A DNA stretch of 64,000 nucleotides from Escherichia coli (GTDB lineage: Bacteria > Pseudomonadota > Gammaproteobacteria > Enterobacterales > Enterobacteriaceae): NCBI RefSeq assembly GCF_044324785.1, contig NZ_CP172127.1; one strand, written 5' to 3'. The notes under the pieces were generated by a model. That model worked only from the letters and a program-made list of their open reading frames with translations, ran no database searches and was not told where the DNA came from. The stretch's first letter is position 1, and each line of letters begins with the position of its first letter. The position numbers and the translations under genes were made by a program. Below are positions 9,547 to 26,373 of this stretch, in pieces.

Positions 9547-9975
9547 TTAATCTCCCGTAAGTGGAACTAACAGCACATCGACCTCACTTGAGGCAATCAC
9601 TCTTTTCGCCGAGCAGGATGCTCGCGAAAAGAAACTGTGATTGTGATTACCGCAAATCACCAAATCGAAATGATATTTGCGACAAACTTCCAGAATATGT
9701 TCGCTTAACTCACCGTAGGCAATAAACGTCTTGTCAACGGGATACCCCGCATCCTGAATTAACTTATCAAGAAAGCTTTGCGTTTCTTCCTGCATCACGC
9801 TGCGTAAATCTTCAAGCATCGGCGCAGCTAATTGATTGTACATTTCCGGGTCGGAAGCGAGAGTAATTAAACTGATGTGTCCCTTTACTGGCCTGGCGAT
9901 AGATACCGCTTTTGCCAGCAGTTGCTGACTTTCCGGTGTAACCGCAACGGCGACAAGAATATTGCTATAGCTCAT
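9547..9975 (-). CDS. uspC: Universal stress protein UspC
   Basis: ORF track 142 aa; Usp-family sequence; synteny. Confidence 0.9.
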   Translation of the reverse strand: MSYSNILVAVAVTPESQQLLAKAVSIARPVKGHISLITLASDPEMYNQLAAPMLEDLRSVMQEETQSFLDKLIQDAGYPVDKTFIAYGELSEHILEVCRKYHFDLVICGNHNHSFFSRASCSAKRVIASSEVDVLLVPLTGD

Positions 9976-10755
9976 AACCTGTTCCTTATTCTGTGAACTT
10001 CAGGTGACATTAAAGCTTTACTCCTAATGGAGAAACGACGCAATCCCAACTCAGTCAAACAGGTAAATATTAGTCTGATTATTAGTAAAGACAATTAATC
10101 AATCACTCTCGGTGATCATATGATTTCAACTGTAATTATAAGAAAATAATGTACTGATTCTCCATATTAAACAAGTGGTTAATATATGTAAAACATTTTA
10201 TTAACATTAAGTTGATTGTTGCCTTTCTTTGTATTTAATTAGTTTGTTGTGCGGTAAGTGTCTGTTTAAAAATAGCTTATCTGGTATTGCATTAAAGCAA
10301 TTATTTATAGCAGATGATTATTTACGGTGAGTTATTTTAACTGTGCGCAACATCCCATTTCGATTATTCCTGTTTCATTTTTGCTTGCTAGAGTCGCGAA
10401 AAACTTTTTAACAGATTGAAATACACCCAAAACAAAAGTATGACTTATACATTTATGTTAAGTAATTGAGCGTTTTGTGTGATCTGTATCACACATTATT
10501 GAAAATCGCAGCCCCCCTCCGTTGTATGTGAGTGTAGTGACGAGTAAAGTTGCGTCGATTTAGGAAAAATCTTAGATAAGTGTAAAGAACCCCTTCTATT
10601 TGTAAGGACTTATTGAATCCCAAAAAGGGGCTCTGCCTGTTGCAGCTTATCGCAACTATTCTAATGCTAATTATTTTTTACCGGGGCTTCCCGGCGACAT
10701 CACGGGGTGCGGTGAGACCGCATAAAAATAAAGTTGGTTATTCTGGGTGGGAATA

Positions 10756-11106
10756 ATGCATACCTCCGAGTTGCTGAAACACATTTATGACATCAACTTG
10801 TCATATTTACTACTTGCACAGCGTCTGATTGTTCAGGACAAAGCGTCCGCAATGTTTCGTCTCGGCATAAATGAAGAAATGGCGACAACGTTAGCGGCAC
10901 TGACTCTTCCGCAAATGGTTAAGCTGGCAGAAACCAATCAACTGGTTTGTCACTTTCGTTTTGACAGCCACCAGACGATTACTCAGTTGACGCAAGATTC
11001 CCGCGTTGACGATCTCCAGCAAATTCATACCGGCATCATGCTCTCAACACGCTTGCTGAATGATGTTAATCAGCCTGAAGAAGCGCTGCGCAAGAAAAGG
11101 GCCTGA
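10756..11106 (+). CDS. flhD: Flagellar master regulator subunit FlhD
   Basis: ORF track 10747..11106; start MHTSELLKH (116 aa). Confidence 0.95.
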
Positions 11107-11108
11107 TC

Positions 11109-11687
11109 ATGAGTGAAAAAAGCATTGTTCAGGAAGCGCGGGATATTCAGCTGGCAATGGAATTGATCACCCTGGGCGCTCGTTTGCAGATGCTGGAAAG
11201 CGAAACACAGTTAAGCCGCGGACGCCTGATAAAACTCTATAAAGAACTGCGCGGAAGCCCACCGCCGAAAGGCATGCTGCCATTCTCAACCGACTGGTTT
11301 ATGACCTGGGAACAAAACGTTCATGCTTCGATGTTCTGTAACGCATGGCAGTTTTTACTGAAAACCGGCTTGTGTAATGGCGTCGATGCGGTGATCAAAG
11401 CCTACCGTTTATACCTTGAACAGTGCCCGCAAGCAGAAGACGGACCGCTGCTGGCATTAACCCGTGCCTGGACATTGGTGCGGTTTGTTGAAAGTGGATT
11501 ACTGCAACTTTCCAGCTGCAACTGCTGCGGCGGCAATTTTATTACCCACGCTCACCAGCCTGTTGGCAGCTTTGCCTGCAGCTTATGTCAGCCGCCATCC
11601 CGGGCAGTAAAAAGACGTAAACTTTCCCAGAATCCTGCCGATATTATCCCACAACTGCTGGATGAACAGAGAGTACAGGCTGTTTAA
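11109..11687 (+). CDS. flhC: Flagellar master regulator subunit FlhC
   Basis: ORF track 192 aa; Cys cluster C..C..C..C near C-terminus. Confidence 0.95.
11618..11644 (+). promoter_or_regulatory. Sigma28 (FliA) promoter inside the flhC 3' end: TAAACTTT-N11-GCCGATAT
   Basis: taaacttt (11618..11625), 11-nt spacer, gccgatat (11637..11644); close to the TAAAGTTT-N11-GCCGATAA consensus. Confidence 0.6.
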
Positions 11688-23910: not shown

Positions 23911-25981
23911 TCTGGCCGCGATGCTGCGCCTGCCTGCAAACCTGAAATCGACACAATGGCAGATCCTTGCCGGACCGATTTTGATCCTGCTGATCTTGTC
24001 GATGATGGTGCTGCCACTGCCCGCATTCATACTCGACCTGCTGTTTACCTTCAATATTGCCTTGTCGATCATGGTGTTGCTGGTGGCGATGTTTACCCAG
24101 CGCACGCTTGAGTTTGCTGCGTTTCCGACCATTCTGTTGTTTACCACGCTGTTGCGTCTGGCACTTAACGTGGCTTCAACCCGTATCATTTTGATGGAAG
24201 GGCATACCGGCGCGGCGGCGGCTGGGAAGGTGGTCGAAGCGTTCGGTCACTTCCTCGTTGGTGGCAATTTTGCTATCGGTATCGTGGTGTTCGTCATTCT
24301 CGTGATCATCAACTTTATGGTTATCACCAAAGGTGCCGGGCGTATTGCGGAAGTGGGCGCGCGCTTTGTTCTCGATGGTATGCCGGGTAAGCAGATGGCG
24401 ATTGACGCCGACCTTAACGCCGGATTGATTGGTGAAGATGAGGCGAAAAAACGCCGCTCCGAAGTGACTCAGGAAGCCGATTTTTACGGCTCAATGGACG
24501 GGGCAAGTAAATTTGTTCGCGGCGATGCCATCGCCGGGATCCTCATCATGGTCATTAACGTTGTCGGCGGGTTGCTGGTCGGCGTGCTGCAACATGGCAT
24601 GAGCATGGGACACGCCGCGGAAAGTTATACGCTATTGACCATTGGCGACGGTCTGGTGGCACAAATCCCGGCGCTGGTGATTTCTACCGCCGCGGGGGTC
24701 ATCGTTACGCGTGTCAGCACCGATCAGGATGTTGGCGAGCAGATGGTGAATCAGCTTTTCAGTAACCCGAGCGTTATGTTGTTAAGTGCCGCCGTGCTCG
24801 GTTTACTCGGCCTGGTGCCTGGAATGCCGAACCTGGTATTTTTGCTGTTCACTGCCGGATTGCTGGGGCTGGCCTGGTGGATCCGCGGACGCGAACAAAA
24901 AGCGCCTGCCGAACCAAAACCGGTAAAAATGGCAGAGAATAATGCCGTTGTCGAAGCGACGTGGAACGATGTACAACTGGAAGATTCTCTGGGAATGGAA
25001 GTGGGTTATCGACTGATCCCGATGGTCGATTTCCAGCAGGATGGTGAGTTGCTGGGCCGTATACGCAGTATTCGCAAGAAATTTGCCCAGGAGATGGGGT
25101 TTCTGCCGCCGGTGGTGCACATTCGCGACAATATGGATCTGCAACCTGCCCGCTATCGCATTTTGATGAAAGGCGTGGAGATAGGCAGTGGTGATGCTTA
25201 TCCGGGGCGTTGGTTGGCGATTAACCCTGGTACCGCTGCCGGGACGTTACCTGGTGAGGCGACCGTCGATCCGGCATTTGGCCTGAATGCTATCTGGATT
25301 GAAAGTGCGCTTAAAGAACAGGCGCAGATTCAGGGGTACACCGTGGTTGAGGCCAGCACGGTGGTGGCAACGCATCTTAACCACCTCATTAGCCAGCATG
25401 CCGCAGAGCTGTTTGGTCGTCAGGAGGCGCAACAGCTGTTGGATCGCGTCGCCCAAGAGATGCCAAAGCTGACGGAAGATCTCGTTCCTGGCGTCGTCAC
25501 GCTCACCACACTGCATAAAGTGCTGCAAAATCTGCTCGATGAAAAAGTACCGATTCGCGATATGCGCACCATTCTCGAAACGCTGGCGGAACATGCGCCC
25601 ATCCAAAGCGATCCACATGAATTAACCGCCGTCGTGCGCGTGGCGTTGGGACGGGCGATTACCCAGCAGTGGTTTCCTGGCAAAGATGAAGTTCATGTTA
25701 TTGGCCTCGATACACCGCTGGAACGTTTGTTGCTACAGGCGTTGCAGGGCGGGGGCGGACTGGAGCCAGGGCTGGCGGATCGTTTACTGGCGCAAACTCA
25801 GGAAGCGCTATCCCGTCAGGAGATGTTGGGTGCGCCGCCAGTTTTATTGGTGAACCACGCGCTGCGACCATTATTGTCTCGCTTCCTGCGCCGCAGCCTG
25901 CCGCAGTTAGTGGTGCTGTCGAATCTGGAACTGTCTGATAACCGACATATCCGCATGACGGCGACAATTGGCGGTAAATGA
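23903..25981 (+). CDS. flhA: Flagellar export apparatus protein FlhA
   Basis: ORF track 23828..25981; start MSNLAAMLRLP at 23903 (692 aa); overlaps flhB by 8 nt. Confidence 0.95.
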   Translation: MSNLAAMLRLPANLKSTQWQILAGPILILLILSMMVLPLPAFILDLLFTFNIALSIMVLLVAMFTQRTLEFAAFPTILLFTTLLRLALNVASTRIILMEGHTGAAAAGKVVEAFGHFLVGGNFAIGIVVFVILVIINFMVITKGAGRIAEVGARFVLDGMPGKQMAIDADLNAGLIGEDEAKKRRSEVTQEADFYGSMDGASKFVRGDAIAGILIMVINVVGGLLVGVLQHGMSMGHAAESYTLLTIGDGLVAQIPALVISTAAGVIVTRVSTDQDVGEQMVNQLFSNPSVMLLSAAVLGLLGLVPGMPNLVFLLFTAGLLGLAWWIRGREQKAPAEPKPVKMAENNAVVEATWNDVQLEDSLGMEVGYRLIPMVDFQQDGELLGRIRSIRKKFAQEMGFLPPVVHIRDNMDLQPARYRILMKGVEIGSGDAYPGRWLAINPGTAAGTLPGEATVDPAFGLNAIWIESALKEQAQIQGYTVVEASTVVATHLNHLISQHAAELFGRQEAQQLLDRVAQEMPKLTEDLVPGVVTLTTLHKVLQNLLDEKVPIRDMRTILETLAEHAPIQSDPHELTAVVRVALGRAITQQWFPGKDEVHVIGLDTPLERLLLQALQGGGGLEPGLADRLLAQTQEALSRQEMLGAPPVLLVNHALRPLLSRFLRRSLPQLVVLSNLELSDNRHIRMTATIGGK

Positions 25982-26373
25982 TGAGAACCTTATTAGCAAT
26001 ATTATTGTTTCCGCTGCTGGTGCAAGCCGCCGGGGAGGGGATGTGGCAGGCAAGTAGTGTCGGAATTACGCTAAATCACCGTGGTGAGTCGATGTCGTCA
26101 GCGCCTCTTTCTACTCGACAACCTGCTGCAGGATTGATGACGCTGGTGGCGTGGCGTTATCAGCTTATCGGCCCGACACCTGCAGGACTGCGGGTTCGCT
26201 TGTGTTCACAATCTCGTTGTGTCGAATTAGATGGGCAGAGCGGAACCACCGTGGCCTTTTCCGGTATAGCGGCAGCAGAACCGTTGCGCTTTATCTGGGA
26301 AGTGCCTGGCGGTGGGCGGTTAATTCCGCCGCTAAAGGTACAACGTAATGAAGTGATTGTGAATTATCGTTAA
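25981..26373 (+). CDS. flhE: Flagellar protein FlhE
   Basis: ORF track 25978..26373; signal peptide; start overlaps flhA stop. Confidence 0.9.
   Translation: MRTLLAILLFPLLVQAAGEGMWQASSVGITLNHRGESMSSAPLSTRQPAAGLMTLVAWRYQLIGPTPAGLRVRLCSQSRCVELDGQSGTTVAFSGIAAAEPLRFIWEVPGGGRLIPPLKVQRNEVIVNYR

Follow-up and report, generated by a model that had tools for sequence, protein, structure and literature searches.

The control region upstream of flhDC, the flagellar master operon of Escherichia coli, receives many regulatory inputs. Crp is a positive regulator that binds the flhD upstream region (PMC5493358), and the repressors listed at flhDC include H-NS, LrhA, OmpR, RcsAB, Fur, IHF, MatA and YjjQ (PMC5493358; PMC5100188; PMC1174868, on regulators and IS activation). 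Control continues after transcription, within the flhDC leader, which is 198 nt long in K-12 and is bound by CsrA (PMC12692685; AsflhD preprint). According to the literature, CsrA at the 5' end of the leader shields the mRNA from RNase E, and the small RNAs McaS, OmrA/B, ArcZ and OxyS act on the leader, as does the antisense RNA AsflhD, which starts 22 nt downstream of the flhD AUG (AsflhD preprint).

Laboratory K-12 strains are known for insertion sequences in this region. IS elements located at about -96 to -476 stimulate flhDC in K-12 (PMC5100188), and MG1655 stocks spread at 4.1 mm/h with IS5 vs 1.3 mm/h without it (PMC1174868), in agreement with the statement of an earlier note on this DNA that IS insertions raise flhDC expression in motile K-12 stocks. 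An IS-free version of the K-12 flhDC region has also been described (PMC5493358; PMC1174868). Among natural isolates of the ECOR collection, spreading correlated with the activity of PfliC; for PflhD the correlation was much weaker or not significant (PMC5289928).

Here we describe the same region in an E. coli strain, within a stretch of 64,000 nt (the window). The region can be regarded with high confidence as the native, IS-free, divergent uspC/flhDC control region of a non-K-12 E. coli. It has the gene divergence, the spacer length, the collinearity, the layout of CRP-type site and leader, and the intact flhDC genes of native enterobacterial uspC/flhDC regions. An IS-free flhDC control region is the ordinary state and is already known.

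The uspC-flhD spacer and its empty insertion targets

The uspC-flhD spacer occupies exactly positions 9976-10755 of the window, the uspC ATG ending at 9975 on the minus strand and the flhD ATG lying at 10756. It is 780 bp long and 65.1% A+T, vs 49.4% for the whole window. The genes, the spacer and the insertion targets are placed as follows.

9547-9975, minus strand: uspC coding sequence, 142 aa, divergent from flhD (from the list of open reading frames)
9976-10755, no strand: uninterrupted uspC-flhD intergenic control region, 780 bp, collinear with IS-free alleles
10450-10457, no strand: empty MG1655 IS1H target CATTTATG, one copy, at -107 to -100; duplicated around IS1H in MG1655
10458-10461, no strand: empty IS5 target TTAA of the W3110/Barker type, one copy at the site, at -99 to -96 (position from PMC5100188)
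10756-11106, plus strand: flhD, intact, 116 aa, protein identical to K-12 FlhD
11109-11687, plus strand: flhC, intact, 192 aa, with E111D, a conservative change, as the sole difference from K-12

There are no internal stops in flhD or flhC, nor across all 28 genes from yecH to argS. The window contains araFGH, otsBA, uspC, flhDC, motAB, cheAW, tar, tap, cheRBYZ and flhBAE. Its uspC has 100% nucleotide identity to the annotated uspC of strain N3, and UspC differs from K-12 UspC at three amino acids. The most divergent gene of the flagellar cluster is flhE (25981-26373), which has 95.4% nucleotide identity to N3 and differs at 5 of 130 amino acids, vs nucleotide identities of 98-99.5% for its neighbours.

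Pattern searches of the entire 64-kb window found neither the IS1 terminal repeat (allowing up to 3 mismatches) nor the IS5 terminal repeat (up to 2 mismatches). The terminal repeats of nine other IS elements gave best matches with at least 6 mismatches in 20 (14 of 20 positions or fewer agreeing), a scan that is weak evidence in that the end sequences used may be wrong; the test of collinearity described below is decisive. Within the spacer no inverted repeat reaches 12 nt, and the single direct repeat, of 13 nt, is at chance level. The longest open reading frames touching the spacer encode 40, 44 and 47 aa, none of the three with a Pfam match at E<=1, and Rfam gave no match in the spacer. 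The earlier note had described 780 bp of continuous AT-rich DNA upstream of flhD that held no transposase gene and no IS ends, and its description stands on each point: the boundaries are exact, the A+T content is high, IS1 and IS5 ends are missing, and the reading frames reach 47 aa at most and match nothing in Pfam.

The two K-12 references differ from the window in this spacer. In MG1655 the spacer is 1,555 bp long, and IS1H (768 bp) is annotated at 1978503-1979270, between flhD and uspC, flanked on both sides by CATTTATG. The W3110 spacer, at 1,978 bp, contains a 1,195-bp IS5 flanked on both sides by TTAA. Both elements had been named in the earlier note, IS1 for MG1655 and IS1 or IS5 for K-12 laboratory stocks in general, and the annotation and sequences bear this out. 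IS5-activated flhDC has reportedly been found in stocks of the W3110, RP437 and MC1000 type by Barker and colleagues in 2004 and by Wang and Wood in 2011.

For the alignment with MG1655, IS1H and one copy of the target duplication were deleted. The remaining 779 bp can be aligned over their full length to the spacer of the window, from which they differ by 32 substitutions and one indel of 1 nt, at 10618. The W3110 spacer is likewise 779 bp after removal of IS5 and the duplicate TTAA, so that alignment to the MG1655 and W3110 flhD upstream regions, the check that the earlier note had proposed, finds the IS-free versions of both collinear with the window. Ten other natural alleles of E. coli have spacers of 778-780 bp. 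Any IS remnant, or a leftover target duplication of 4-9 bp, would show as an indel, and there is no such indel. An IS remnant or target duplication, the finding that would have undone the earlier note's claim, was thus sought in the spacer and is absent.

MG1655 and the window have the flanking sequence and the insertion target in common; the difference is that MG1655 carries the 768-bp IS1H with CATTTATG duplicated at -107 to -100, whereas the window has the single target and no IS. The same is true of W3110, which shares with the window the flanking sequence and the TTAA target at -99 to -96 but has the 1195-bp IS5 and a duplicated TTAA, where the window has a single TTAA and no IS. The K-12 targets of IS1H and IS5 adjoin in the window, and each is single and unoccupied. 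Two further sites upstream of flhD have been reported as IS5 targets, TTAG near -314 and CTAG near -166, and these too occur in one copy. We conclude with high confidence that the spacer of the window contains no IS and no insertion scar.

Frequency and ancestry of the uninterrupted state

The frequency of the uninterrupted spacer was assessed in complete E. coli genomes with 500-bp queries, for which even a 777-bp IS1 insertion would split the match; the search joins matching pieces only across distances of up to half the query length plus 500 bp. The flhD-proximal half (10256-10755) gave one contiguous match, at 80% coverage or more, in 5,246 of 5,426 genomes, and the uspC-proximal half (9976-10475) did so in 5,359 of the 5,426. 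The spacer is therefore uninterrupted in at least about 95% (95-97%) of complete E. coli genomes. The exact IS1 junction of MG1655 occurs in 79 of the 5,426 genomes, at least one of the 79 being a spurious joined match, and the exact IS5 junction of W3110 in 60. Together these two K-12 junctions explain 139 of the 167-180 genomes without a contiguous flhD-proximal half, and the examples listed with them are laboratory strains and clones from evolution experiments. Outside the two laboratory K-12 lineages, interruption affects roughly 1-2% of genomes. The uninterrupted state is thus the rule in E. coli and no distinguishing trait of this strain; the K-12 laboratory lineages are the exception.

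One natural interruption is that of the clinical isolate E. coli Ecol_AZ147, which carries an IS1A inside the flhD leader, at the equivalent of window position ~10576, ~20 nt past the transcription start. Insertions at such a leader position abolish motility rather than raise it (PMC5100188).

The arrangement is also widespread outside E. coli. A degenerate pattern for the start of flhD gave 109 loci in species representatives, and uspC was found upstream in 81 of these. In all 81, uspC and flhD are divergent, with a median spacer of 794 bp and a length of 740-820 bp in 75 of the 81. Other Enterobacteriaceae, including E. albertii, E. whittamii, Salmonella, Citrobacter and Enterobacter, have the same divergent uspC/flhD pair with a spacer of about 780-800 bp, and individual lengths are as follows.

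Escherichia albertii: 779 bp
Escherichia whittamii: 777 bp
Escherichia sp. E1V33: 779 bp
Salmonella enterica subsp. arizonae: 786 bp

Five outgroup or divergent Escherichia lineages have spacers of 776-779 bp, with 4-9 gap columns in alignment with the window. These Escherichia outgroups are collinear with the window and have one unoccupied copy of the hotspot. In other Escherichia species the identity of the spacer drops to about 72-74%. Spacers of unusual length were seen in Cedecea neteri, Cedecea davisae, Enterobacter sp. Cy-643 and Enterobacteriaceae bacterium RIT693 (938 bp in each), in Citrobacter amalonaticus S646 (1,001 bp) and in a Pluralibacter MAG (638 bp).

As the spacing in the outgroups equals that of the window, the uninterrupted state is the parsimonious ancestor. 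The claim of the earlier note that this region is ancestral and uninterrupted accordingly finds support both in the species-wide frequency and in the outgroups with the same spacing.

Other histories of the locus have been considered. It is very unlikely that the uninterrupted sequence is an artefact of assembly, or that it represents one part of a mixed culture. An ATCC stock of MG1655 was such a mixture, about half IS5-plus and half IS-minus (PMC1174868), but the window runs collinear with N3 for 50 kb, with only 8 gap openings and unbroken at the locus, and its 64 kb contain neither IS1 nor IS5 ends; moreover, an IS element usually fragments a short-read assembly and does not drop out of it.

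An IS could also have been present upstream of flhD in an ancestor of the strain and later have been lost by precise excision, so that the region would be only secondarily uninterrupted. Against this extremely improbable history stand the comparison with 11 other E. coli alleles and five Escherichia outgroups, which shows neither a residual target duplication nor an indel, the identical 780-bp allele of strain N3, which has no IS, and the spacing in the outgroups, which favours an uninterrupted ancestor. Gain of an IS at this locus is frequent under selection for motility, as the literature records, and precise excision would leave no trace in the sequence; however, a screen of 5,000 colonies from a motile variant carrying IS5 yielded no less motile revertants (PMC1174868).

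The chance that the spacer holds an insertion other than an IS, such as a MITE, a REP cluster or a small cryptic gene, is negligible: three short open reading frames (40-47 aa) do overlap it, but its length and order match those of all compared alleles and outgroups within 1-4 nt, the repeat, Pfam and Rfam results given above argue against such an insertion, and no block of 9976-10755 was found to be without a counterpart among the compared E. coli alleles.

Promoter, CRP site and leader of flhDC

With the native, IS-free reading of the region in place, the regulatory sites known from K-12 can be mapped onto the window. The transcription start of flhD is fixed at window position 10557 by the IS5 target TTAA, which lies at -99 to -96 (PMC5100188). 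This position agrees with the 3' end of the AsflhD feature in MG1655 and with the 198-nt leader of K-12. The features then fall as follows.

10478-10493, plus strand: CRP site TGTGAtctgtaTCACA, at -79 to -64, centred on -71.5; both half-sites equal the consensus
10522-10527, plus strand: putative flhD -35 hexamer TTGTAT, at -35 to -30, placed by its distance from +1
10545-10550, plus strand: putative flhD -10 hexamer TAAAGT, at -12 to -7, with a 17-nt spacer from the -35 hexamer
10557-10755, plus strand: flhDC 5' leader, 199 nt (198 nt in K-12)
10563-10565 (+7 to +9) and 10606-10608 (+50 to +52), plus strand: GGA motifs in the leader
10557-10777, minus strand: position equivalent to the antisense RNA AsflhD, mapped from MG1655 feature b4839
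10589-10639 (+33 to +83), plus strand: variable leader stretch, with 12 of the 33 differences from K-12 within 51 nt
10590-10595 and 10625-10630, plus strand: candidate helix CCCCTT/AAGGGG around the second GGA

We take TGTGAtctgtaTCACA to be the CRP site centred at -71.5 that Soutourina and colleagues reportedly described in 1999, in a paper that PMC5493358 cites. The extra nucleotide of the leader is one T, at 10618, and the two GGA motifs may be CsrA sites. A scan for consensus promoters called sites at chance level only and missed the flhD promoter, because its -35 hexamer matches the consensus at 3 of 6 positions. The same hexamer is invariant across Escherichia species, in which the CRP half-sites, the 5' end of the leader (~32 nt) and the last ~100 nt of the leader are also conserved. 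The 5' end of the leader, GAATTAGGAAAAATCTTAG followed by TGTAAGAA over the first ~32 nt, is near-invariant in 91 species representatives, and the sequence beyond it is lineage-specific. Within this 5' end, E. coli has GATTTAGG vs GAATTAGG in other species, other Escherichia included.

Applied to the window, the K-12 literature would predict transcription of flhDC from about 10557 by a weak sigma-70 promoter, which would need CRP at -71.5 and would be held down by repressors on the long A+T-rich upstream DNA. CsrA, several small RNAs and the antisense AsflhD would then act on the 199-nt leader and so add a post-transcriptional layer of control. In laboratory K-12, an IS1 or IS5 about 100 bp or more upstream of the start relieves the repression and makes the cells constitutively more motile. 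As the window has no such IS event, flhDC should be under its full native, condition-dependent control. These roles of the sites, and the expression level, come from the K-12 literature and are mapped here onto an allele that differs at 33 of 780 positions.

The leader is hypervariable at 10589-10639, both within E. coli and across Escherichia. The predicted local folding energy of this stretch is -12.7 kcal/mol in the window vs -6.0 in K-12. On 12 Escherichia leaders, 84.7% of cells of the candidate helix were paired, vs 54-64% for slid partners; changes on both sides were seen in 4 of the 6 pairs, with a covariation score of 0.465 vs 0.08-0.19 for the slid controls, comparisons in which the controls are biased by the specification of the helix by hand from the window's own sequence, and in which the sample is small and its members related. 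The pairs read CCCCUU/AAGGGG in the window and GCAUCA/UGAUGU in E. whittamii and Escherichia sp. E1V33, and K-12 has an A-U replacement. In 500 shuffles the observed figures for cells paired, for cells changed on both sides and for the covariation score were never equalled, and the two count-type measures were reached by 134 and 171 of the 500. In the commonest E. coli allele the stem contains a C.U mismatch, and RNAalifold on the same 12 leaders predicted a 5'-terminal hairpin only and not the candidate helix.

The possible covarying hairpin is thus a weak lead. Rather than drifting neutrally, the variable stretch might form a lineage-specific tuning helix that presents the second GGA in its loop and is kept across Escherichia by compensatory changes, the haplotype of the window being an unusually stable version, but we consider this doubtful. 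If it were true, lineages of E. coli would set the stability of flhDC mRNA, or its dependence on CsrA, differently without any IS. A single conserved leader structure for the whole family was also considered and dropped; Enterobacter and Citrobacter have differing, lineage-specific hairpins, and the leader's central part cannot be aligned across genera.

The allele of the strain and its bearing on motility

The spacer of the window differs from K-12 at 33 of 780 positions (95.8% identical). This figure, and the lack of any complete genome with 99% identity over 25 kb, set the strain apart from K-12 and its close relatives; the best matches over the first 25 kb are N3 (98.9%) and then 042 (98.7%). 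Positions 1-50000 of the window have 98.99% identity to N3, with which they are collinear (8 gap openings), and the divergence is patchy, with 0-3 mismatches per kb at uspC-flhDC and at 46-49 kb and up to 25-35 elsewhere. This pattern suggests a recombination mosaic.

The spacer allele itself is 100% identical to that of N3, likewise without an IS. Identity of 99% or more to it was found in 242 of 5,421 genomes with the 780-bp query and in 255 of 5,413 with the flhD-proximal 500 bp, most genomes lying near 96%. The allele is thus a minority haplotype, carried by about 5% of complete genomes. A related spacer allele, with 13 differences from the window, occurs in E. coli 042.

IS-free natural E. 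coli and the poorly motile K-12 stocks (such as BW25113 and the 'less motile' MG1655) have the arrangement seen in the window, with a length within 0-2 nt, and in these alleles the empty hotspot, the position of the CRP site, the -35 hexamer, the ends of the leader and the start of flhD are as in the window. IS-free K-12 nevertheless differs from the window in having TCACG rather than TCACA in the CRP half-site, TACAGT rather than TAAAGT at -10, and 14 differences in the flhDC leader, 12 of them within 51 nt. At 10489-10493 the window has the half-site TCACA, as do 11 other E. coli alleles and five Escherichia outgroups; in this sample TCACG occurs only in K-12. The K-12 reference therefore appears to carry the weaker CRP site, as judged from sequence. 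The -10 hexamer varies by lineage at its third base: K-12 and most E. coli have TACAGT, the window-type haplotype alone has TAAAGT, and the form is TATAGT in 'E. coli E69' and TAGAGT in E. albertii.

These differences limit what can be said of the strain's behaviour. The earlier note held that the uninterrupted region bears on baseline motility, which is true only in a weak sense: the background is non-K-12, the spacer differs at 33 of 780 positions, and motility in the ECOR isolates tracks PfliC rather than PflhD. As the CRP site, the -10 hexamer and the leader all differ from K-12, and in view of the ECOR data, absence of an IS cannot predict the strain's motility. It tells us that the K-12 shortcut to constitutive motility is lacking but gives no measure of the strain's own motility.

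The finding matches the usual condition of E. coli, in which an intact control region with many inputs precedes the flagellar master operon. It is also a caution about the K-12 references, which are unusual at this locus both in their IS1 or IS5 and, in our sample, in an imperfect CRP half-site unique to K-12, so that expectations of motility drawn from MG1655 and W3110 are not transferable to the strain. In soft-agar growth of the strain, any hypermotile IS mutants that arise should be checked first at the empty hotspot (-107 to -96).
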